DNA from: Gemmatimonadales bacterium
Lineage (GTDB): Bacteria; Gemmatimonadota; Gemmatimonadetes; Gemmatimonadales; GWC2-71-9
Reading direction: 5' to 3'
DNA: 18,835 nucleotides
NCBI GenBank assembly: GCA_039794085.1
Contig: JBDIWC010000065.1
Location: forward strand, 1-18,835
Shown here in pieces: positions 3,403-18,743 of the stretch; position 1 is the stretch's first letter, and the number at the start of each line of letters is the position of its first letter. Both the position numbers and the translations under genes were made by a program. The notes under the pieces were generated by a model that worked only from the letters and a program-made list of their open reading frames with translations, ran no database searches and was not told the origin of the DNA.

Positions 3403-4155
3403 ATGCCCTCCTCCGGCGCCGACCCCACCGACGCTCCCTTCCCCGCCACTCGCCACTCGGTACTGGAGCGGCTGGACAGCGGGGACGATTCCCTCCGTGA
3501 CAGCGCTCTCAACCACCTGGCAACGGTGTACTGGCGGCCGGTCTATGGCCACCTCCGGCTCCGCTGGCATCGTACCCCTGAGGATGCCGAGGATCTGACC
3601 CAGGAGTTCTTCGCGCGGGTGACCGACGGCACCCTCCTCCGGGCCTATGACCCGAGCCGTGCCCGGTTCCGCACCTATCTCCGGGGCTGCGTGGATCACC
3701 TCGCCGCCAACGCGCTCCGGGCCGAACGACGCCACAAGCGAGGGGGAGGAGTTCACCCCCTTCCGCTCGACTTCGAGGGAGCCGAACGGGACTTCGTGAG
3801 GGCGGGACAGGTGACCGAGGCGGACGCCGACCGGCAGTTCCACCACGAGTGGGTCCGCGGGCTGTTCGCAGTGGCGGTGGCTTCGCTGCGCGACAGCACT
3901 TCCGGGACTCCCCGGGAGGTGCGATTCCGCATCTTCGAGCAGTACGACCTGGCCCACGCCGACCATGACTCCCGACCTACCTATCAGACCATTGCGAATC
4001 ATTTCGACCTGCCGGTGACCCAGGTCACCAACCACCTCGCCTGGGCGCGACGGGAATTCCGATGCCTGCTGCTGGAACACCTGCGGGCTCTGTCGGGAAG
4101 CGAGGAGGAGTTCCGGGAGGAGGCGAGGGCCCTTCTGGGAGTGGACCCCCCGTGA
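3403..4155 (+). CDS. ECF-type sigma-70 factor (kinase-associated type)
   Basis: Same frame as ORF 3217..4155; ATG 3403 chosen to avoid overlap with the peptidase. N-terminal FPATRHS motif, sigma2 (YWRPVY...EDAEDLTQEFF...RFRTYL) and sigma4 HTH (TYQTIANHFDLPVTQVTNHLAWARREF). Its stop overlaps the kinase start. Confidence 0.88.
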   Translation: MPSSGADPTDAPFPATRHSVLERLDSGDDSLRDSALNHLATVYWRPVYGHLRLRWHRTPEDAEDLTQEFFARVTDGTLLRAYDPSRARFRTYLRGCVDHLAANALRAERRHKRGGGVHPLPLDFEGAERDFVRAGQVTEADADRQFHHEWVRGLFAVAVASLRDSTSGTPREVRFRIFEQYDLAHADHDSRPTYQTIANHFDLPVTQVTNHLAWARREFRCLLLEHLRALSGSEEEFREEARALLGVDPP

Positions 4156-5114
4156 CCTCCCTCAGCGACCACGCCGTGTCGCGACTCCGGGCCCTGCTCG
4201 GCGCGCCTTCCGTGGACGGAGGCCGCTACGCGATTGCCGAGGAGATCGGTCGAGGGGGCATGGGGACGGTCTATCGGGCGCACGATACGATGCTCGACCG
4301 GGACGTGGCCCTCAAGGCGTTGCGACCGGACCTCCCCGGTGAGCATTACGCGGATCGCCTGCGGGCCGAGTCGCGCGTGCTGGCCCGGCTGGAACACCCG
4401 GGAATCGTTCCGGTCCACGACGCCGGGGTTCTCTCCGACGGCCGGCACTTCTACGTCATGAAACTGGTTCACGGGGAGCCGCTCGACCGCTACGCGTCCC
4501 GCGTCTCCCTGCCGGAGTCGCTCCGGACCCTCCTCCGCGTCTGCGACACCATCGGCTTTGCGCATGCGCGCGGTGTCATTCATCGCGATCTCAAGCCGGC
4601 CAACATCATGGTCGGCCGGGACGGGGAGGTGCTGGTTCTCGACTGGGGCATCGCCCGGACCCCCGCGGGCGACCACGGCAGTGATGCGTCGGCGGCGCCT
4701 CTCCCCGTTGACGCCGGGAACACCGCCCCGGGAACCGTGCTCGGCACCCCGGGATACATGGCGCCGGAACAGGCCGGGGGCGACCCCGATTCCCTTGACC
4801 ATCGCGCGGACATCCACGCGCTCGGAGTCATCCTTCGCGGCCTGATCCTGTCCCGAGCCCCGCGACAGGAGACCCGGCCACTCGAGTCGATCGCCCGGAA
4901 GGCCAGCGCTCCCGATCCCACCGCTCGCTACCCCGATGTGGCGACCCTGGCCCACGACATCACCAACTATCTCGATGGATTCCCGGTCTCGGCGCATCGG
5001 GAAAGCATGACCGAGCGCGTGGGCCGGGTGTACAGAGCCTACCAGACCCCGATTCTCCTCGTCCTGGCGTACCTGGTGATGCGGCTCCTCTTCTTCGCCA
5101 GCCGGCGCATCTGA
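4152..5114 (+). CDS. Hanks-type Ser/Thr protein kinase with a C-terminal transmembrane anchor
   Basis: GTG at 4152 overlaps the sigma TGA (GTGA). Motifs IGRGGMGTVY, VALK, HRDLKPAN, DWG, GTPGYMAPEQ. Hydrophobic tail PILLVLAYLVMRLLFFA followed by SRRI. Confidence 0.92.
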   Translation: MTSLSDHAVSRLRALLGAPSVDGGRYAIAEEIGRGGMGTVYRAHDTMLDRDVALKALRPDLPGEHYADRLRAESRVLARLEHPGIVPVHDAGVLSDGRHFYVMKLVHGEPLDRYASRVSLPESLRTLLRVCDTIGFAHARGVIHRDLKPANIMVGRDGEVLVLDWGIARTPAGDHGSDASAAPLPVDAGNTAPGTVLGTPGYMAPEQAGGDPDSLDHRADIHALGVILRGLILSRAPRQETRPLESIARKASAPDPTARYPDVATLAHDITNYLDGFPVSAHRESMTERVGRVYRAYQTPILLVLAYLVMRLLFFASRRI

Positions 5115-8971: not shown

Positions 8972-9682
8972 TCTTCACACGCCTCACTTCCAACCTCCAA
9001 CTTCGAACTTCACACTTCCCTTCGTGTCTTCGTGTCTTCGTGTCTTCGTGTGAGTCATTCTCCCGATGGCGAAAGAGTATTTCGCCCCTACGTCCCACTT
9101 CACACTTCCAGTGGACCCCGGCGTGCACCCGGGTGACGTTCCGATGTACGCTCGGGGACCCGGCTCTTCTTCGCGCCTTCGCGTCTTCGCGTGAGTTCCC
9201 TGCACAATCCCGAGCGCTCTCCTGCGCCTCGGCCTTTCACACTTCGCATTTCGCACTTCAAACTTCTCCCATGGACCCCGGCGTGCGCCGGGGTGACGGC
9301 CATTGTAGGCGGTAGGCGGTGGGCGGTAGGGACCCGATCCCGTCCACCTGTTCTTATCCCCCCTGACGCGTCTCCCTTCACACTTCCCTTCGTGTCTTCG
9401 TGTGACCCACCCTACCCGGGCCATAGGTGCTTCGCCCCTACCTCATACCTCACGCTTCGAACTTCGAACTTCCAATGGACCCCGGCGTGCGCCGGGGTGA
9501 CGTTCCGATGTACGCTCGGGGACCCGGCTCTTCTTCGCGCCTTCGCGCCTTCGCGTGAGTTCCCTGCACAATCCCGAGCGCTCTCCTCCGCCTCGGTCTT
9601 TCACACTTCGAACTTCGCACTTCACACTTCCCACCTTCGAACTTCGAACTTCCAATGGACCCCGGCGTCCGCCGGGGTGACG
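8972..9682. repeat. Composite REP/short-tandem-repeat cluster (BIME-like)
   Basis: REP palindromes RTGGACCCCGGCGT...GGGTGACG at 9111, 9271, 9475 and 9655. Two copies of the unit seen at 1-430. (CTTCGTGT)x4 at 9020-9051. CTTCRMA heptamers. GTAG-type hairpin GGCGAAA-GAGTA-TTTCGCC-CCTAC at 9068-9091 with a half copy at 9431-9441. TRGGCGG heptamers near 9306-9330. Confidence 0.92.
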
Positions 9683-9699
9683 CTCCTATGCGTGCCCGC

Positions 9700-10650
9700 C
9701 TATGCGTGCCCGGAGAGCAGAGCCAGGAGACGCTCCCGGATCGCCTTGCGCACCGACTCCGGATCGAGCACCTCCGCCTCGGGGCCGTACTGCAGCACAT
9801 GGCTCACCGCCCACTCCTGATCCGCCAGCGGGTGCTCCACCACCACCGATCCATCCTCGGCCACCGTCCCCGTTTCCCGTTCCCGAATCCAGGGCGCGAT
9901 CCGCGCCGAGTACCGGACCCGCATGACCGCGATGGCATCGCCGAGGAAGGCGCGGCCGTCCTTCACGAAGTCCTCCAGCGCCAGGCCGGGCAGCGGCTCG
10001 AAGCGCGTCTCCTCGACGGTCACGTCCCCGATCCGGTCCACCCGATACACCCGCAGGGAGTCCCCCTCCGCCAGTGCGGCCAGATACCAGCGACCGCGGA
10101 CATGCAGCAATCCGCAGGGCGCCACGGTCCGCGGCGTGGCGGTGAGAGATCCCGACGACTGGTAGCAGATCGTGACCCTCCGATGACCCGCGATCGCCTT
10201 CCGGAGCCGGGACAGCAGCACCGGGTCGGCCCCATGCTCCAGCGACGCGTGCAGCGCCCCGGGTGCATCTTCCGTCACCACCGTGGTGCGCACCGACTGC
10301 AGATGCCGGCGGGCCCGCTCGATTCCGGCGTGCTCGTCGGGGGGACGGCTCCCCTGGAGCATGGCGAACCCAAGGTCCAGGGCGGCGAGTTCGGCCGCCG
10401 TCAGGCGCATGGGACGGAGAAAGTGGTCGGTGCGCAGCTGCACCCTCTCCCCGTCGAGGTAGATCTGCACCCCTTCGACAAATCCTGCCGGATCATCGTA
10501 CCGCTCGGCCAGAGCCCGCAGATCACGGAGAAGGGTCCGCTCGTCGGTCCCGGTCTCCGAGGCGACGTCGGCCAGGCGGTGGGGACGGTCGTCGGCGCAG
10601 CGCGGGATGATCTCCAGCAACCGGCGCAACTGCCGAGCGCTGTCGCTCAT
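9700..10650 (-). CDS. WYL-domain transcriptional regulator, PafC-like (HTH-WYL-WCX)
   Basis: ATG 10650 overlaps the upstream TGA (ATGA). N-terminal HTH (QLRRLLEIIP...LADVASETG...LLRDL), linker RPMRLTAAELAAL, WYL domain (RTVAP...GRWYLAA...YRVDRI), WCX tail (LQYGPEAEVLDPESVR). Confidence 0.92.
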   Translation of the reverse strand: MSDSARQLRRLLEIIPRCADDRPHRLADVASETGTDERTLLRDLRALAERYDDPAGFVEGVQIYLDGERVQLRTDHFLRPMRLTAAELAALDLGFAMLQGSRPPDEHAGIERARRHLQSVRTTVVTEDAPGALHASLEHGADPVLLSRLRKAIAGHRRVTICYQSSGSLTATPRTVAPCGLLHVRGRWYLAALAEGDSLRVYRVDRIGDVTVEETRFEPLPGLALEDFVKDGRAFLGDAIAVMRVRYSARIAPWIRERETGTVAEDGSVVVEHPLADQEWAVSHVLQYGPEAEVLDPESVRKAIRERLLALLSGHA

Positions 10651-11723
10651 GCGGAATCCTCCTCGTACCGGGCGAGAGTGGCACGGGCCAGCTCCCGCCA
10701 GGAGGCCACCGCGCTGTCGGGCGCGACGACCTGGACGTCCGGGCCGGCACCGAGCAGCCACCGGAGGAACGTGTCAGGCCGCCGGACCGCAAAGCTCCGG
10801 TAGTCCGGATCTCCCTCGACCGGTTGTCCCAGCCGCCGGATGGCCTGAGCCGCGACTCCCGTCCCCCGCACCGCGACATGAATGGACACCCCGTCTCCCG
10901 ACCCCAGTTCCCAGGCCTCCCGGGAGCGGGCGTGCCGGGCCAGATCGAACCCGGGCGGGCGGACGAAATCAGGCCCACCTCCCGGGTGATTCACCGTGAC
11001 GTTGGCCATCCGGCCCAGCCGGAAGTTCTTGCACACCCCGTCCTCGTCCACCGCGGCGAGATACCAGTGGTGGGAGTGGAAGAAGAGCCCCAACGGAGAC
11101 ACGGAGCGTTCGCGTTCCGTGCCGCTGTTCAGGCTTCGATACCAGAGGCGCACCGTGGTGCGGGATCGCACGGCCCGTAGGAGCGTGTCGAAGAGGTCAT
11201 CCTCGATGCGCGCCCCCCGTTCGGAGACGATCAGGTCCGTCTCCGCTCCTCCGGGGGCCTCGACGGGGAGGTCACACCCCAGCTTGCGGAGAGCCGATCG
11301 AATGTCCCCCGCGAGCCGGGGAATCCCCAAGGCGATGGCATGGGCGGCCGCCGCGGAGACGAGGGCCAGATCCTCCGGCTCGAACACCAGGTGAGGGAGG
11401 TTGCGATATCCGTGCCGGTCGATCCGTTTCGGCGGCCGTGGCTCTCCCCCCGTTCCGAGGGAGAGGTAGGGGAGATAAAAATCCTCCCGGCGCAGCCGGT
11501 AGCCCAATTCCCCATCCCCAGCATCGGCCGTGTCCAGGGGAATCCCGAACGCGCGGAGCTCCTTCTTGTCCCGTTCGAAGAGTTGTCGCCGAGCCCCGGC
11601 CGACCGGGCATTCTGATACCCGGGGACATCGCGGATCAGTTCCTCGAAGGGGGCGGGATAGTGCCGGCGAAGCAGAGCGGCGAGGAGATCGATCCACCGG
11701 CGGAGTTTCGGAGGAGGGGGCAT
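10647..11723 (-). CDS. WYL-domain transcriptional regulator, PafB-like (wHTH-WYL-WCX)
   Basis: 358 aa. VPGY...RRQLFERDKKELRAFGIPL matches the PafB recognition-helix signature (FERDKxELRxxGIP). WYL domain RSVSP...HWYLAA...FRLGRM; WCX tail WLLGAGPDVQVVAP. Starts 3 bp after the helicase stop. Confidence 0.93.
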   Translation of the reverse strand: MPPPPKLRRWIDLLAALLRRHYPAPFEELIRDVPGYQNARSAGARRQLFERDKKELRAFGIPLDTADAGDGELGYRLRREDFYLPYLSLGTGGEPRPPKRIDRHGYRNLPHLVFEPEDLALVSAAAAHAIALGIPRLAGDIRSALRKLGCDLPVEAPGGAETDLIVSERGARIEDDLFDTLLRAVRSRTTVRLWYRSLNSGTERERSVSPLGLFFHSHHWYLAAVDEDGVCKNFRLGRMANVTVNHPGGGPDFVRPPGFDLARHARSREAWELGSGDGVSIHVAVRGTGVAAQAIRRLGQPVEGDPDYRSFAVRRPDTFLRWLLGAGPDVQVVAPDSAVASWRELARATLARYEEDSA

Positions 11724-11726
11724 TAT

Positions 11727-14700
11727 TCACTTCCCGCCGGGTGAATCGCCCGGCTCGGGGACGCCCGCGCACCATCCCACCCGCCGGAACCCGCATCGGG
11801 CACACTCTCCGGGATCGGTGGCGAGGGCGGGCGGATCCTGCCGCAGGTCGCGGGAGAGCGCCCGGGCAAACTCCGACGCCTCCTGGCTCCGCTCGGCGCC
11901 GATGGCGATCCGATGCTGAACCCCGGGACGGGAGAAGTGGAAGCGGAATTCCGACACCGGGTGTCCGGCCAGGGCCGCCGTCGCCGCCGTGTACACCTCT
12001 CTCTGAATCGCGTATCGCTCCGCGGACACGGCCACCTCCTCGGCGGGCACGTCGCTGGTCTTGACGTCGAGGATGGTGATCCCGTCCGGCCCCGGCGCCA
12101 CGAGGTCGAGGGCTCCCTGCCACCACACCTCGCCGTCCCCGCGGCAGAGGAAGCGGAGCTCGCGACGGGCCTCGGGCCGGTCCGCCACCTCCCGCCAGGC
12201 GGGGTCGGTCGCGACCTCCTCGATCTCGGTTCGGAGCGCCAGGCGATAGCGGGAACCGCTGGTCGCCTCGGGAGGCGGAGCCTCGGGATCCCACCGGCCG
12301 ATCGCGTCCTCCAGGAGGAGGTCGAGTTCCTCCTCCAGGCGCAACTTTTCCAGCACATCATGCACGATCTGACCCCGGGCCACCGCACTGCCGAATCCGG
12401 GCCCCGATCCCGGGTGCCTCCCGGCCGGTTCGCGGATCCCCATCACGTACTGGAACCATCGTTTCCGGGGGCAGCGGGCGTGCTGCAACGCTTCGGTCGC
12501 CGAGTGGAGCGATCGTCCCGGGGGCACCTCGAGGCTCGGGAGTGGGCCGGGGATCCCGTCACCCGGAGCCAGCGAGGGCGGTTCATCGGTGACGGGGTCC
12601 GGGAGGGAGGCTGGCGCATGCAGCACGACGTACGGGCTCCTGGGTGTCCTGTCCAGGTCACCCAGGAGTTTCACCGCGGGACCCCACGATCCCTTTGCCC
12701 CCGGCAGGGAGACAATGAGTCGTTCCCGGGCTCGGGTCGCCGCCACATACCAGAGGCGCTTCTGCTCGGCCTGCCCTTCGTGCTCCTGCTCCGCTTTCCT
12801 CTCCTGCCACGCCTCGGGCTGATCCTTCGACTCCGCCTCGGGATCCTTGAGCGCGAAGGTGTCCCGCCCGGCCAGAAGCACGGCCCGGGTGTCGGTGAAC
12901 GGCTTCCGCCCGACGTCGGCCCAGAAGACCACGCGCCATTCGAGCCCCTTGGCCGAATGCACGGTGGAGAGCGAGAGGACGTCATCCCCGGGGTCGTGCA
13001 GGCGTTCCACGCCCACGCGATCCCGTCGCTCGCGCCGGATCGCGAGATCCCGCAGCCATTCCTCGAGGGTGACGAGGGCGGCGGCCCGGGCCATCCGCTG
13101 GAGTTTGCGCACGTTGGCGATCGCTCCCTCCCGGCCGAGCAGATGGAGATGGACCAGATACCCCGTGTCATCCACCAAGTGCTGCAGGAGGACATCGTGA
13201 GGGACCCGGTTTCGCAGGCGGCCCATCCGGTCGAGCACCTCAAAGCCCCGCCGGCACCGCTCCGAGTCCGGCCCCGGGGTCGGGAGTTCCCGTCCGGGCC
13301 ACGGGGACCCGGGGGCAGCCAGGGCCAGCTCGAGCAGGGTCTCGTCGCGCACGGCCACGAAGGGGCTGCGCAGGAAACCGGCGACGTGACGATCGTCATG
13401 CGGGTCGGCGATGGCATGGAGCGCCACGAGGCAGTCCACGATCTCCTGCTGCTGAAAGAACCCGTCATCGAGGAGGGTGTCGGTGGGGATTCCCTCCCGG
13501 CGCAGGGCCGAGGCATAGATCTCCACGTCGGTCCAGACCGGAAGGAGGACCGCCATCTCGGCCCAGCCGATCCCCTCGTCCTCATGGAGGGCGCGGGCCC
13601 GGGTGGCGATCGCGGCGGCCTCGCAGCGTCGCCGGTCCGCCGCCTTTTCCACGACGTCGGGCACGGCGAGGAGTTCCACCGGTGGGCCGCTCTCCTGGTC
13701 GGGCCGACCGACGGACATCGGGGTGAGGGGGACCTCGTAGTCGGCAAGCGCGGTGGCGTCCGAATCGACCGGTGTGTTCAGGCACGGTCCCAGCACCTGG
13801 TGCACGAAGTCCAGGATCGGCTGCTGGCTGCGGAAGTTTTCGGGGAGGGTAATGACCCGTCCCCGCGTGCCCGAGGCGAAGTGGCGCTCCACCACGTGCC
13901 AGCTCGTGACATCGGCGCGGCGGAACCGGTAGATGCTCTGTTTCGGATCTCCCACGAGAAGGAGGCGCGGGGTATCGGCTCGTTCCGACTCGGGGTCCCC
14001 CAACAACCATGCGATCTCGCGCTGGACCGGGTCCACGTCCTGGAACTCGTCCACGACCAGGGTCCCGATCCGGCGCTGGAGGGTCCGGCGGACATAGGGG
14101 TCGTCGCGGATCAGGTCGCGGGTCCAGGTGAGCATGTGGTCGAAGTCCACCGTCCCCCGTTCCCGCAGGCGATCCTCCAGGAGAGCGGTGGCGGCCTCGG
14201 CGAGGGCGAGGGTCGTTTGCTCCCGGGGCGGGAGCCGGTCCCGATTCCGGGCGAGGGTCCGGAGCCGGTCCCCCTCCCTCACGAGCTGTCCCACCGCCTC
14301 CCGGAACCGTGCGAGAGGGAAGGAGACCAGGAGGGAATCGAGACCGGGGAGGGAGCCTTCGGTCACCGCTCCCACGAGGGCGTCGCGCACGGCCTCGTCG
14401 ACGAGGGACGCACTGTCACCCTCTTCCATCACGTCCAGCGAGGATCCCTCGCCTCGTCGCAGCGCAAATTCCCGGAGGATGTCCCCGGCAAAGGCGTGGA
14501 TCGTTCCGATGCGCGCGGCATCCACCGCCACGGCCTCCTCCCGCCGCTCCTGGTCACGGAGGGCGGACCGGATCCGGCCCTTCAGGTCGGCGGCGGCGGC
14601 GTTGGTAAAGGTGATGGCGGCGATCCGGTCGAGGGACACCGGAGCGGGGATCGTGCGGCCCTCCACCTCGACACCGAGGAGGTAGAGGAGGCGTTGGACC

Positions 14701-14807
14701 ACGGTACCGGTCTTGCCCGATCCGGCGCCGGCGTTGACGAGCACGTGCTGGTCGGCAGCCCAGACCACGTCGCGCTGGTGCGGAGTCAGGGGGGGACGCG
14801 TCGTCAT
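11727..14807 (-). CDS. UvrD/SF1A helicase fused to a PD-(D/E)XK nuclease (AddA/AdnB-like motor subunit)
   Basis: ATG 14807 overlaps the upstream TGA (TGATG); 1026 aa. Motifs I AGAGSGKT, Ia TFTNAAA, Ib TIHAF, II DEFQD, III VGDPKQSIYRFR, IV NFRS, V TVHSAKGLE, VI YVAATRARE. RecB-family nuclease GALDLV...DVKT...QREVY, with Cys in RCPR and CARCGFRRVGWC. Confidence 0.93.
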   Translation of the reverse strand: MTTRPPLTPHQRDVVWAADQHVLVNAGAGSGKTGTVVQRLLYLLGVEVEGRTIPAPVSLDRIAAITFTNAAAADLKGRIRSALRDQERREEAVAVDAARIGTIHAFAGDILREFALRRGEGSSLDVMEEGDSASLVDEAVRDALVGAVTEGSLPGLDSLLVSFPLARFREAVGQLVREGDRLRTLARNRDRLPPREQTTLALAEAATALLEDRLRERGTVDFDHMLTWTRDLIRDDPYVRRTLQRRIGTLVVDEFQDVDPVQREIAWLLGDPESERADTPRLLLVGDPKQSIYRFRRADVTSWHVVERHFASGTRGRVITLPENFRSQQPILDFVHQVLGPCLNTPVDSDATALADYEVPLTPMSVGRPDQESGPPVELLAVPDVVEKAADRRRCEAAAIATRARALHEDEGIGWAEMAVLLPVWTDVEIYASALRREGIPTDTLLDDGFFQQQEIVDCLVALHAIADPHDDRHVAGFLRSPFVAVRDETLLELALAAPGSPWPGRELPTPGPDSERCRRGFEVLDRMGRLRNRVPHDVLLQHLVDDTGYLVHLHLLGREGAIANVRKLQRMARAAALVTLEEWLRDLAIRRERRDRVGVERLHDPGDDVLSLSTVHSAKGLEWRVVFWADVGRKPFTDTRAVLLAGRDTFALKDPEAESKDQPEAWQERKAEQEHEGQAEQKRLWYVAATRARERLIVSLPGAKGSWGPAVKLLGDLDRTPRSPYVVLHAPASLPDPVTDEPPSLAPGDGIPGPLPSLEVPPGRSLHSATEALQHARCPRKRWFQYVMGIREPAGRHPGSGPGFGSAVARGQIVHDVLEKLRLEEELDLLLEDAIGRWDPEAPPPEATSGSRYRLALRTEIEEVATDPAWREVADRPEARRELRFLCRGDGEVWWQGALDLVAPGPDGITILDVKTSDVPAEEVAVSAERYAIQREVYTAATAALAGHPVSEFRFHFSRPGVQHRIAIGAERSQEASEFARALSRDLRQDPPALATDPGECARCGFRRVGWCAGVPEPGDSPGGK

Positions 14808-17800
14808 CAGAATGCCTCCCGGGGCCCACCGGGAATCCGGCAGATGTCCCGACCGGGGCACCAGGGCGCACAGGTGCAACTGGGGGGGACGGCGAGGGGA
14901 AAGACCCCGCCCCGGATGGACCGGACGTGGGACACGACCGCATCGAGGGAGCTCTCCAGGCGCCGGGCCGCATCCGGATCGGGGAGGATGGTCCCGGTTT
15001 TCCAGTCGACCGTGGCGAGCTGCAACACATGCACCGCCTCACGCGACTTGACCGCTCGATATTCGGTGCGCGCGATCCGCGACTCGGGATAGAGGGCGCG
15101 CAGGGCGTGGGCGTAGAGGGGGATCTGCAGCACGATCTCGTCGCCCCAGGCGCCGGCGCTCCCACCGCCCGGAGTGGACCACTTGCTGCTCTTGTAGTCC
15201 ACGGCCGCGATCCAGGTTTCCGGATTCGGGACTCGCTCATCGACGCCGAATTCGACCCGGTCGATCGTGCCGCGATACCTCATGCGCACGCCATCGCGTT
15301 CCAGCACGACATCCTGAAAGGTGAGCTCGTGGTGGGCCACTCCGGTCCGGAGACGCTTCGGGGCATTGCCCCTGTTGCTGGCCCGTTCCTTCTCGATTTC
15401 GCTCGTTTCCCACTCCAGGTAGCGCCACAGGGCCCGCCGGGTGGAGGCCCGGGTCACGTCGTGCAGCGCCTCCGGTCCGAGCCAGCCGCTGGACACCGCC
15501 ACCTCCCACGCCTCGTTCAGCACCTGGTCCAGCACGGGTTCGAGGGCCCGCAGGCGATCCCGGTCCAGGACCACGGGGGAACCCCACTGCTCCGCGGCGC
15601 GATCGAAGAAGCGACGCAGAGTATCGTGCCAGAGTGTTCCACGCGCGGCGGGATCGGCTTCCTCCCCGGGGTCGGTGCCCTGTTCGAGGCGGAGCAGGCG
15701 TTGGGCAAACCAGGACCAGGGGCACTTGGCGTGAGACTCAAGGCTGCTCGGACTCCAGGAATACCCGTCTCCGAAACGTTCCTTCAGGAGGCTCAGGAGA
15801 TCGGTTCGGGTAATCAACCCGGACCAGAGTCCCGGCCGGGGGCGGGCGCGATCCCGCTCAACCTCGGCGGCGTGCCGTGCCGTGAAGAGAGCCCGGGAGG
15901 TACGGTAGAAGGGAATTCCCGGCGTGATCACACGGCGGGCACCAATCCGCTCGGGGGTGATGTGGGCCACCTCGGACAGGGCATCGAGAAAGGGAGAGGG
16001 AAGTGTGTCGCGCCCCGCCACGTCCCGGGCGGGGCGAGAAACGGTGAGGTGCTCGGCCGAACCCACCAGCAACCGAAAGTGGTGGCGTTCCCGAAGGGCA
16101 CGGTGATCGCTCCCGTCGAGGGGAAGTCCGGCCCGGCGGAGCAGACGCCGATCCTCCTCATGGAGGAGGGGGGAGACCGACGGAGCGACCGGGAATTCCC
16201 CCGCATTCATTCCCATCAGAAAGAGATGCTCCCAGCTTCGGCCCGTCGCGGCCAGGGCTTCGAGCACCTGGACCCCCTTCCGGACCGGGGTCCAGAGGGC
16301 CACATCACCCGAGAGGACGTTCCGCAGATGATCGCGGAACGCCGCGACCGGGAGAGGGGCATCGTCGCTGTCGATGGAACTCCACCGATCCAGGGCCGCC
16401 CTCCACTCCTTCACGGCGGTGGTCACCCCGCGCCAGCCGGCCAGGTCGACCCGGGCCAGGTCCCAATTGCTGTCCGGAACCTCCCAGATTCGGGCCCCCA
16501 TGTCGAGTGGATCGTCGGCCAGAAAGCGCTCCAGCCAACGGAGCCAGTGGGCCAGGGGACGCGGGGGATCGATCTCGAGCACGGCGTTCTCGAACTGCTC
16601 GAATCCGTCTCGCGCCCGCCGAATGAGTCCGGGCGGGGGAGTCCCGACACGACGGGGTTCATCGGAGTCCGTCGCCCCGTCTCGTTCCGCCCGGGCCCGT
16701 TGTTCCAGCGTGAGGAGAGCGCCGCGCCACACCGCCAGACCCCGGACAGGAGACTCGAAGCCGATGCGATTCAGGATGTCGGGGTCGAGTTGATGCCGGA
16801 AATAGGGTTGCCGGGCCAGAGACACGAGACCATGCCGGGTCCACCCGTCCGCAGCCGCGTTGAAAAGCGCGGTGAGGGCACGGACCACGGGAATCTCTCC
16901 CAGTGTCATGCGACGCCGTGCCGACCCGGACAGACCTGCACGGGCCAGGGCACCCAGCACGAGATCCGTGGTGGGGCGAGCTCGCCGGCTGACCACCGCG
17001 ATGCGATTCGTCGGCACGCCCCGGTCCACCAGAATGCGGATGCGCCGCGCCACCTCCTCGGCCTCGCGCTGTGGATCCGGCGCCGTGATGCATGCCACGG
17101 TGCGGGTAGGTTCACTGCGCTCGGACGGCGTGAAGAGCCGCGCCGGAAGCGCCGTGGCCGTGAGGGGTTCGGGCAGAACCGTGGTCCGGGCGGGACGGAG
17201 CCCCTCCGCCTCGAGGATCCCGGGGGCGGCGTAGAGCACCACCCGGTCGAAACAGGGCGTGCGGTCCAGGACCGAGAGGAGCCGCCGCCAGCCACCTCGC
17301 AGATCAGTGAGCCCGACGATCCGCATCTCTCTCCTCGTCCCCAGCCGCCGCGACACCGCGTCGGGATTCTCGGCGAGGAAGGCCGCGGTGTCCACGAGTG
17401 CGGCCCGACCATCGCGCACCCGGTTGGCCCGCAGCAGACTCACCCACGCGTGGTAAACCCCTGCCAACGCTTCATCCCGGGCCCGATCCACCGGATCGCG
17501 GAAAGGAGCGGCAAGGCGAACCGCTGCGTGAAAGGCCTCGGGTGTCACACCCGCGCTCCCGAGTTCGCCGAGCAGGTGATCCACCGCGTCGATGAACCCG
17601 GGTTGCGACGCGACGGGGGAGAGGACTTCGCCTCCGTGCCCGCGCATCAGGCGCTGAACCAGAACCGCCCGGTCGAAGTCGGTGAGGGGGACGTGATCCG
17701 GGGCGCCCAGCCAGAGCGGGAGCTCGTGGAAAACGGCCACGGGAGGGTCAAACCATCCGGGAAGCCGCTTCCGGGCCGCGAGGGCCAGGAGATCATCCCG

Positions 17801-17986
17801 GAGTCCCCCTTGGCGAAGGACCAGGAGGGTATCGGGCGTGGCCAGCGGACGCGATCCCGGCGTCGGGGTGGGTGACACAAGGAGCGGTTCGGACGCCTGC
17901 TGGAGGAGCCGTTCCGGATTGTGTGCACTGACCAGTTCAATTCTCAGACAGTCGATGGGCTGAATCATATCATCAATAGACGTCAT
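14807..17986 (-). CDS. PD-(D/E)XK nuclease with a degenerate helicase-like N-terminus (AddB/AdnA-like subunit)
   Basis: ATG 17986 with AGGAG RBS, 1059 aa; the ORF track extends to a TTG at 18061. No Walker A. AddB-like segments EAEEVARRIR...IAVVSR, LFLMGMNAGEFP, PSPFL, SPSSLESHAKCPWSWF, RGTLWH, GTIDRVE, VDYKSS, LQIPLY, and C-terminal CTCAPWCPGRDIC. Confidence 0.9.
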   Translation of the reverse strand: MTSIDDMIQPIDCLRIELVSAHNPERLLQQASEPLLVSPTPTPGSRPLATPDTLLVLRQGGLRDDLLALAARKRLPGWFDPPVAVFHELPLWLGAPDHVPLTDFDRAVLVQRLMRGHGGEVLSPVASQPGFIDAVDHLLGELGSAGVTPEAFHAAVRLAAPFRDPVDRARDEALAGVYHAWVSLLRANRVRDGRAALVDTAAFLAENPDAVSRRLGTRREMRIVGLTDLRGGWRRLLSVLDRTPCFDRVVLYAAPGILEAEGLRPARTTVLPEPLTATALPARLFTPSERSEPTRTVACITAPDPQREAEEVARRIRILVDRGVPTNRIAVVSRRARPTTDLVLGALARAGLSGSARRRMTLGEIPVVRALTALFNAAADGWTRHGLVSLARQPYFRHQLDPDILNRIGFESPVRGLAVWRGALLTLEQRARAERDGATDSDEPRRVGTPPPGLIRRARDGFEQFENAVLEIDPPRPLAHWLRWLERFLADDPLDMGARIWEVPDSNWDLARVDLAGWRGVTTAVKEWRAALDRWSSIDSDDAPLPVAAFRDHLRNVLSGDVALWTPVRKGVQVLEALAATGRSWEHLFLMGMNAGEFPVAPSVSPLLHEEDRRLLRRAGLPLDGSDHRALRERHHFRLLVGSAEHLTVSRPARDVAGRDTLPSPFLDALSEVAHITPERIGARRVITPGIPFYRTSRALFTARHAAEVERDRARPRPGLWSGLITRTDLLSLLKERFGDGYSWSPSSLESHAKCPWSWFAQRLLRLEQGTDPGEEADPAARGTLWHDTLRRFFDRAAEQWGSPVVLDRDRLRALEPVLDQVLNEAWEVAVSSGWLGPEALHDVTRASTRRALWRYLEWETSEIEKERASNRGNAPKRLRTGVAHHELTFQDVVLERDGVRMRYRGTIDRVEFGVDERVPNPETWIAAVDYKSSKWSTPGGGSAGAWGDEIVLQIPLYAHALRALYPESRIARTEYRAVKSREAVHVLQLATVDWKTGTILPDPDAARRLESSLDAVVSHVRSIRGGVFPLAVPPSCTCAPWCPGRDICRIPGGPREAF

Positions 17987-18109
17987 CACATCTCCTGCTT
18001 CACGCCGGAATTCGGCTCGCCGGGATTCGGTGGCTTCTTCTTCTTGGCTACTTAGTGACAAGGTATCCCGTTTATGGCGGTCGCGATAGGGGATCCCCGA
18101 GGTGTTACG

Positions 18110-18131
18110 AGATTAGCACACGGGTGTGACA
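18110..18131 (-). promoter_or_regulatory. Putative PafBC-type activated promoter (-26 element plus extended -10) for the four-gene operon
   Basis: Minus strand reads TGTCAC-ACCCGTGTGC-TAATCT, i.e. TGTCAC-N10-TA-N3-T. The mycobacterial RecA-NDp consensus is TGTCRG-N10-TA-N3-T. Correct orientation, about 125 bp upstream of ATG 17986; a TGn extension precedes the -10. Confidence 0.6.
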
Positions 18132-18134
18132 GCA

Positions 18135-18253
18135 TAGGCGGTAGGCGATGGGCGGTAGGCGGTAGGGACGACACACCCGTAGGGGCGAATCACATTCGCC
18201 GGGGGGGGGGTGGGTTTGGGTGTTGGGTATAGCAGGGAGCAGGGAACAGGGAG
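18135..18253. repeat. Heptamer arrays, GTAG-type REP hairpin and G-rich tract
   Basis: (TRGGCGR)x4 at 18135-18162; GTAGGGGCGAAT-CAC-ATTCGCC at 18179-18200; G10 run at 18201-18210; (CAGGGAR)x3 at 18233-18253. Confidence 0.8.
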
Positions 18254-18461
18254 TAGTCCCTTACGAACAGGATTGAACACAAAACGGCAACAAGATTTTG
18301 GGTGACAGTCCGAAAACCCGCGCAGGCAGTGCGTTTGAAGGCGGTTGGGAGGGCATTCAACTTCGAGGCATCTCGATGTTCGCGTCGCGGAGCGTCGCCG
18401 TGACCCGGTGATGGGTTTTCCCGGGGCTGACGCCCCTTGCTCGGCCAAGGGAGGTGGGAAG

Positions 18462-18584: not shown

Positions 18585-18743
18585 GCCTCTTTGGTTCCAG
18601 CCCTGCCGGCCTAGGGAGAAGAGAGTCGGGGTATTCGCTCCAAGTCCTATGTCCTATGTCCTATGTCCTATGTCCTATTGATGTCCTATGTCCTATGTCC
18701 TATGTCCCATGTCCTAAGCCGGCAGAGCCGGAACCAAAGAGGC
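18585..18743. repeat. 31-bp inverted repeat pair enclosing a (GTCCTAT) heptamer array; MITE-like
   Basis: GCCTCTTTGGTTCCAGCCCTGCCGGCCTAGG (18585-18615) versus CCTAAGCCGGCAGAGCCGGAACCAAAGAGGC (18713-18743), 28/31 complementary. Ten GTCCTAT-type units at 18644-18717 with a 4-nt interruption. Confidence 0.88.

Follow-up and report, generated by a model that had tools for sequence, protein, structure and literature searches.

Organization of the operon

We analysed a window of 18,835 nucleotides (nt; positions 1 to 18,835 of contig JBDIWC010000065.1, assembly GCA_039794085.1) from a Gemmatimonadales bacterium, in which four minus-strand open reading frames (ORFs) encode, in this order, an AddB-like protein, an AddA-like protein, a PafB-like protein (WYL1) and a PafC-like protein (WYL2). 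On the evidence set out below, this accessory operon is likely to be a self-amplifying DNA-end alarm that switches on defence loci, a reading to which we assign a probability of about 58%. The addB-like gene (14807..17986) begins at an ATG located 5 nt behind an AGGAG sequence, with an alternative start at 17968, and overlaps the addA-like gene (11727..14807) by 1 bp (TGATG). A 3-bp gap (TGA-ATA-ATG) separates the latter from the pafB-like gene (10647..11723), which in turn overlaps the pafC-like gene (9700..10650) by 4 bp (ATGA). The ORFs and the sequence bore out both the co-orientation of the genes and the three junctions described in the initial annotation. The whole unit (9670-18132) was also present in the contigs of a second study, in one 8690-nt piece with 430 differences (~95% identity).

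A predicted PafBC-type hybrid promoter, TGTCAC-N10-TAATCT, lies before addB on the minus strand (18110..18131, read from 18131 to 18110) and combines a -26 element with a -10 element. Its architecture matches the PafBC promoter consensus, tGTCgg(N10)tA(N3)T, as given in PMC8635444, and suggests that the WYL pair may regulate its own operon, as had been supposed before the motif was recognized. The operon of the initial annotation ended at 18131, the first base of the motif, and its text made no mention of the motif. A scan for the sigma-70 consensus revealed no -35/-10 promoter before addB, and a terminator scan revealed no clear terminator behind pafC.

The lineage is Gemmatimonadota and the closest PafB-like loci carry Gemmatimonadota titles, in keeping with the earlier remark that the gene context does not look actinobacterial. 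The operon holds the sole AddAB pair of the assembly, a third PF12705 match being a Cas4-Cas1 fusion, and the only two WYL matches are WYL1 and WYL2. The question whether the genome holds a second addAB or recBCD, or pafA, was answered in the negative, in that no other AddAB pair, RecC or Pup ligase was detected in this 94.7%-complete assembly; LexA was found.

Motif sites in the genome of origin

In the Gemmatimonadota variant of the promoter motif, TGTCACACCC-N6-tA-N3-T, the 5' block is TGTCACACCC. Sites were ranked with a core-column weight matrix that contained no sites from the operon's own genome; a first matrix (27 columns, 8 sites) was discarded, as it placed the addB site under the threshold of 12 and had a weak spacing control. 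Six strict sites, all with an intact TGTC, were found in the genome of origin against 1 for the reversed control, the most of the 61 genomes searched. The top 7 matrix sites precede cas4/1-cas2, an HNH gene, hmaA (two sites), cas7g, addB (score 22.1, rank 6 in the genome) and a type IV restriction endonuclease-like gene, and the eighth-ranked site (TGTAAG) lies before an unknown protein. Both type I-G cas operons are preceded by the motif, with the cas7g site 53 nt before the cas7g ATG and a CRISPR array following cas2, while the HNH gene with a site leads a DISARM-like helicase/SNF2/methylase cluster. These defence loci sit on four contigs other than that of the operon. The term "self-contained" used in the initial annotation had to be abandoned, as motif sites outside the operon indicate a small regulon, composed mainly of predicted defence genes, and the resection partner is interchangeable (see below). 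A separate observation concerns contig C72 (locus L047, 2823-3465), where the type I-G effector genes and cas4/1-cas2 are separated by two genes on the opposite strand that resemble a toxin-antitoxin pair; both halves of the split locus carry a motif site of their own.

The motif was absent before recA, uvrA, recN, ssb, radA, recF, recJ, recR, uvrC, mfd, ruvC and lexA, and the ruvB and dnaE candidates lacked the -10 A. These genes were located by short motifs, which missed uvrA, uvrB, recQ, mutS, recG, dinB and recD2, only uvrA being located later by family. Since recA and core repair genes lack the motif while cas, hma and DISARM-like genes carry it, the cluster is likely a defence alarm. Alternatively, the operon could be an inducible accessory unit for double-strand-break repair, like mycobacterial PafBC-adnAB, with the defence sites reflecting shared islands or a secondary use. 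PafBC control of adnA in mycobacteria (PMC8682763) fits such a role, as do the operon's possession of the only AddAB pair in the assembly and the sites that precede RmuC, Smr and DEDDh exonuclease genes in relatives. The core repair genes without the motif, the defence loci with sites on four other contigs, and the 45 of 60 relatives in which these searches found no AddAB pair all argue against it, and we consider a repair unit unlikely, if still a serious contender to the defence alarm.

Motif sites in related genomes and loci

A scan of the phylum, which extended to 11 of the collection's 64 parts, yielded 80 loci, of which 72 were retained after 3 duplicates and 5 non-Gemmatimonadota loci were dropped. 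In these 72 loci (798 kb), none of which was used to define the motif, 36 sites were found at the canonical spacing, whereas each of eight other spacings gave 0-2 sites, as did each of 8 Markov simulations. Thirty-two of the 36 lay between genes, with a co-oriented gene downstream: vWA (10), pafB-like (7), TM0106 (2), addB (1), DUF2779 (1) or another gene (11), the last group including RmuC, ARPP-1 and a DEDDh exonuclease. In several relatives the motif lies upstream of addB or of a small gene before addB. Uncharacterised proteins nominated by the motif as candidate members of the regulon are vWA, HP0729-like, ARPP-1, DUF2779 and TM0106.

Several features of these loci were noted in passing. 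The commonest gene behind the motif, encoding a vWA protein of ~420 amino acids, is present in 13 of the 72 loci (e.g., L086:2803-4053, L054:291-1553), and the interval from the motif to addB repeatedly contains small Smr-domain and RmuC genes (L023:4346-4660, L071:2978-3292, L072:607-1800, L089:231-1802). Strong sites also occur in islands before envelope-type genes (L025:4989, 6771; L058:7514; L059:2976) that encode a Bor-like lipoprotein, an Ig-domain subtilase and a predicted outer-membrane protein. In one locus (L160, G048:C301, 861) cas4/1 immediately follows the WYL pair and has a motif site 30 nt before it.

Among 60 related genomes, the 22 with a WYL pair gave 17 strict hits (reversed control 4) and the 38 others gave 10 (control 11), although the count of 17 is partly circular because some of these hits were already known when the pattern was written. 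A relaxed pattern, applied to five relatives with assemblies of 10 to 40 contigs, produced 2-8 hits per genome (controls 0-2), and the strong ones were mostly near the locus or other islands. The motif was absent before recA in 10/10 WYL-bearing relatives (scores <=6.5) and before uvrA in 10/10 loci from 5 genomes (scores <=8.2), compared with scores of 19-25 for sites.

The PafB/PafC-like pair

WYL1 contains WYL and WCX domains (Pfam), and its best matches in the PDB were PafB of Mycobacterium smegmatis (E 3e-18) and the PafBC fusion 6sj9. WYL2 contains HTH_PafC (above cut-off), WYL and WCX, and best matched the PafC half of 6sj9 and M. smegmatis PafC, so that domains and structural relatives together upheld the identities first proposed. 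The two genes form a tandem of winged helix-turn-helix (wHTH)-WYL-WCX proteins, PafB then PafC, and a WYL2 partner was present in 64/72 related loci. Using the contact and single-stranded DNA (ssDNA)-binding residues named in PMC8635444 and PMC11804915, we found that the PafB-like protein keeps the equivalents of K5, R8, S40, A43, R50 (R51 here), K52, R56, Y76, R181, Y196, R211 and R214. All six backbone contacts (K5, R8, S40, K52, R56, Y76) are identical in the alignment, and the ssDNA-binding residues R181, Y196, R211 and R214 correspond to R206, Y221, R235 and R238; the exceptions in this region are R208, which is replaced by Lys, and R204, which is not kept. PafC residues R201 and R204, which also bind ssDNA, correspond to R203 and R206, and the alignment of the sigma contact D62 is ambiguous.

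A complex model of the two proteins gave 0.72 against 0.00 for the best control. This mark is reached by 116/157 solved and 2/215 mismatched pairs, with runs agreeing in at least 80% of contacts and a partner pLDDT of at least 75; as a related PafBC complex has already been solved, the pass may reflect likeness only, and the heterodimer of the initial annotation is supported as a prediction. The PafB-like protein is the predicted DNA-reading and ssDNA-binding subunit and the PafC-like protein the predicted sigma-contacting subunit. The genome contains 32 matches to sigma region 4. Four of its proteins are short and sigma70-like (L163-L166; 277-312 amino acids as called), with Tyr at the position of SigA R416 in all four, and no longer RpoD was found among the proteins of the assembly.

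These data also bear on whether the pair is instead a repressor of the CapW/BrxR type, or whether the motif is read by some other factor, such as a sigma70-like protein. WYL repressors do occur in defence islands (PMC11662680; PMC9122601), the genome's 32 matches to sigma region 4 would allow for another reader, and a few sites occur without the pair. However, CapW and BrxR were far weaker structural matches than PafB and PafC, the motif is asymmetric and stands at a fixed distance from the -10 element, as in the PafBC architecture, and its frequency exceeds the control only in pair-bearing genomes. We therefore regard this explanation as very improbable in comparison with activation of the PafBC type.

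The AddAB-like helicase-nuclease

The AddB-like protein matched PF12705 (PDDEXK_1) with an E of 1e-23, and a profile of 13 homologs matched AddB of Bacillus subtilis (3u44_B) with an E of 3.6e-36. It has a helicase-fold scaffold in which no Walker A motif was seen, as in the inactive helicase fold of AddB, followed by a C-terminal PD-(D/E)XK nuclease with four Cys, a predicted Fe-S staple. The AddB-like alignment (A1) shows no variation in the D-R, DYK and Q-Y motifs or in three of these four Cys. The AddA-like protein (UvrD, UvrD_C and PDDEXK_1 in Pfam) is an SF1A helicase-nuclease whose best PDB match was B. subtilis AddA (3u44_A, E 3.8e-40), and Walker A/B, motifs III and VI, the nuclease motif G-D-DVK and a 1+3 Cys set were all found in it. 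All NCBIfam addA and addB models scored below their cut-offs (206 vs 708 bits for addA, 51 vs 904 bits for addB), which points to a divergent clade. Of the earlier label "AddAB/AdnAB-like", the first half was supported by the PDB searches (3u44) and the second was not, AdnAB chains being absent from the PDB matches.

Distribution and exchange of partners

An AddAB pair was found in 15/60 relatives, a count that omits a few fragments at contig ends, and in 0/2 genomes of the same genus; RecC was found in 1/60. This patchy distribution rules out a housekeeping resection enzyme. The PafB/PafC-like pair was present in 22/60 relatives. The exact four-gene order recurred in G018 (frameshifted), G024 and G049, and close linkage in G044 and G046. 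The two pairs are unlinked in G007, G034 and G059, AddAB occurs without the WYL pair in G036, G038 and G039, and the WYL pair without AddAB occurs as well. The syntenic copy in G018 (L019, G018:C6) has apparent frameshifts in addB, addA and pafB, due to either assembly error or decay.

Within the fetched flanks (<=8 kb), an AddA/AddB-like or RecB gene was found in 20/72 loci, or in 16/41 loci of at least 10 kb, and 2 of the 20 have recC-recB-recD directly upstream of pafB. The gene orders include addBA-pafBC, pafBC-addBA and divergent arrangements. The synteny raised in the initial annotation does recur in several relatives, with variable order. Other partners of the WYL pair are a TM0106-family nuclease-helicase (e.g., in the same-genus genome G002) and DUF2779 proteins. 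The WYL pair is linked to four or more deep clades of AddA in a quick tree, which warns of long-branch joins, and partner types interleave on the PafB tree, from which we infer that the link between AddAB/RecBCD-type enzymes and the WYL pair was re-formed repeatedly. Order changes and partner swaps rule out a fixed four-gene system. A search for related loci with AddA alone found nothing. With the PafB alignment, viral contigs gave no match and the sole match among plasmids was a record of chromosome size, giving no sign of mobile-element carriage by these queries. A PUA-like/HP0729-like protein, often adjoining the WYL pair, was seen in 12/72 loci (e.g., L018:14927-16075, L089:9997-11154).

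Repeats and neighbouring genes

The operon is flanked by 170-nt repeats (9097-9690, 1-320 and 18130-18300 of the window) that contain REP-like palindromic units (ACCCCGGCG-N3-GCCGGGGT); the core of these units has 154 matches across the genome, including 26 on contig C19. At 18630-18730, a 7-nt tandem repeat (GTCCTAT) lies inside a 31-nt inverted repeat (18585-18615/18713-18743). An extracytoplasmic function (ECF) sigma factor coupled to a Ser/Thr kinase (3403-5114) is unrelated to the operon.

A probable DNA-end alarm for defence

In the reading that we favour, AddAB would resect free DNA ends, and the resulting ssDNA would bind and activate the PafB/PafC-like pair. The activated pair would redirect RNA polymerase to promoters with the motif and thereby raise the WYL pair itself, AddAB and the defence loci, in a positive feedback. 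End processing would serve as the source of the signal, and the main output would be defence priming, namely of type I-G CRISPR interference and adaptation, Hma, the DISARM-like cluster and HNH nucleases. The proposed ssDNA binding, heterodimer formation and sigma adaptation draw on the PafBC literature, whereas the positive feedback and a mainly defence-priming output are proposed here. PafBC sigma adaptation has been shown only in Actinomycetota, where the in vivo source of the ssDNA ligand is still hypothesised, according to PMC11804915. The repeated association, in another phylum, of the sensor with a conserved promoter code and with end-processing enzymes that are not orthologous suggests that the signal comes from DNA-end processing. 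Precedents exist for two parts of the scheme, as RecBCD products are described to activate CapW (PMC11662680) and DdaA to activate CRISPR and restriction-modification (RM) systems (PMC12392091).

It is conceivable, if rather doubtful, that Gemmatimonadota in general use PafBC sigma adaptation as an immune-priming circuit and not as a repair response. The swappable nuclease would then be the sensor's dedicated signal generator, which would attack incoming linear DNA, amplify the sensor and co-induce CRISPR adaptation and interference, Hma and DISARM-like systems. RecBCD and AddAB products feed spacer acquisition, and if this broader reading were true, the enzyme that makes the spacer substrate would also turn on spacer uptake.

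A number of results weigh against the alarm. Many sites in relatives precede genes without a known defence role, including vWA (10/36), RmuC, ARPP-1, DEDDh exonuclease and envelope protein genes; 10/22 WYL-pair genomes have no strict site; and the motif precedes cas4/1 in 1 of the 3 relatives known to bear the pair and is missing from the other 7 cas4/1 loci, which makes regulon membership labile. AddAB and the WYL pair occur together in 9/15 AddAB genomes (Fisher p 0.06, with kin not independent), and their linkage is not obligate. PADLOC, to which the initial annotation had looked for a defence assignment, has no system-specific model for the four genes and returned only generic UvrD (GajB) and CRISPR-associated WYL matches, with none for AddB, so that generic helicase matches are all that the AddAB pair received. 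Two further results concern the pair's own contacts. M. smegmatis PafB Arg46, one of two guanine-reading Arg, is Gln47 here (codon CAA), and this Gln is unchanged in the second strain, which rules out an assembly error. Among 101 related PafB hits, some from overlapping loci, 99 have Arg at this position and 2 have Lys, so both base-reading Arg (R46 and R50) are found in the clade, although not in this copy. In the one sigma70-like protein that was aligned, SigA R442 is kept, R416 is replaced by Tyr and S446 by Asp. Finally, WYL-less genomes G038 and G060 keep a strict motif upstream of addB.

The last three points would also be expected if the circuit were real in the phylum and had been weakened or re-tuned in the operon's own lineage, with basal expression of the operon and with sites that are relics or are read with altered specificity. 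Nevertheless, the genome of origin heads the 61 searched in strict sites and has kept TGTC in each, Arg50 and the ssDNA-binding residues are retained, and the differences between the two strains, among those listed, fall mostly at third codon positions (28/38 in the pafC-like gene and 6/8 in the pafB HTH region). A weakened circuit thus appears improbable, and we retain the intact alarm as the preferred explanation.

Comparison with known systems

Previous publications describe PafBC, its regulation of adnAB, and DdaA, a WYL protein that activates defence. In the open-access literature we found no description of a PafBC pair co-encoded with AddAB or RecBCD, nor of PafBC in Gemmatimonadota, in line with the initial annotation, whose author was not aware of any; subscription papers (e.g., a 2023 WYL review) and supplements lay outside this search. 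The operon offers a compact four-gene circuit with a defined list of sites. If the alarm is real, a regulon without recA but with CRISPR adaptation and defence systems would represent a known damage switch repurposed for immunity.

The closest relative is PafBC of M. smegmatis and other Actinomycetota (PDB 7p5x, 9fnd, 6sj9), for which control of adnA and sigma adaptation are established (PMC8682763, PMC9186387, PMC6789036, PMC8635444, PMC4012209, PMC11804915, PMC7617703). The two share tandem pafB-pafC genes, wHTH-WYL-WCX proteins, the FERDK recognition helix, ssDNA-binding Arg, the 22-nt tGTC(N)tA(N3)T promoter architecture and a resection helicase-nuclease as target. In contrast to the actinomycetotal proteins, the Gemmatimonadota pair is accessory (22/60 relatives) and often co-operonic with its target, with predicted autoregulation in place of the constant levels reported for PafBC (PMC8635444, PMC11804915, PMC8682763). 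Its regulon is small, the 5' block is TGTCACACCC and its own copy has Gln for Arg46. Neither the pafA/Pup-proteasome linkage nor the recA control of PafBC was found here (no Pup ligase in the assembly and no motif before recA). The clade thus probably works like PafBC, but it does not qualify as PafBC in the strict sense, since pafA linkage and recA control are missing, as is Arg46 in this copy.

With AddAB of B. subtilis (3u44) and mycobacterial AdnAB, the helicase-nuclease shares the addB-addA order, an SF1A motor in AddA and a RecB-family nuclease in both subunits; it differs in being patchy and not housekeeping, in scoring under all NCBIfam cut-offs and in the 1+3 Cys set of AddA. A PafBC-annotated pair outside Actinomycetota is also known from Myxococcus xanthus (pafB/pafC, MXAN_1359/1360), where it is LexA-controlled and in an operon with cyaA, the available text of the two reports mentioning no resection genes alongside (PMC9705874, PMC12288472).

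DdaA of Moraxellaceae is likewise a WYL activator with a motif before CRISPR-Cas, RM and Zorya loci, but it is described as one DriD-like protein, which binds ~50 bp upstream, does not act by sigma adaptation and controls the core repair regulon including recA (PMC12392091). In the system described here, a PafB/PafC pair is encoded together with a resection enzyme, the promoter is of the -26/-10 type and recA has no site. CapW and BrxR are also defence-linked WYL regulators, and CapW responds to RecBCD-derived ssDNA (PMC11662680). Whereas these are homodimeric local repressors that use the host RecBCD (PMC11662680), the Gemmatimonadota pair is predicted to be a heterodimeric activator with dispersed targets and its own source of ssDNA.

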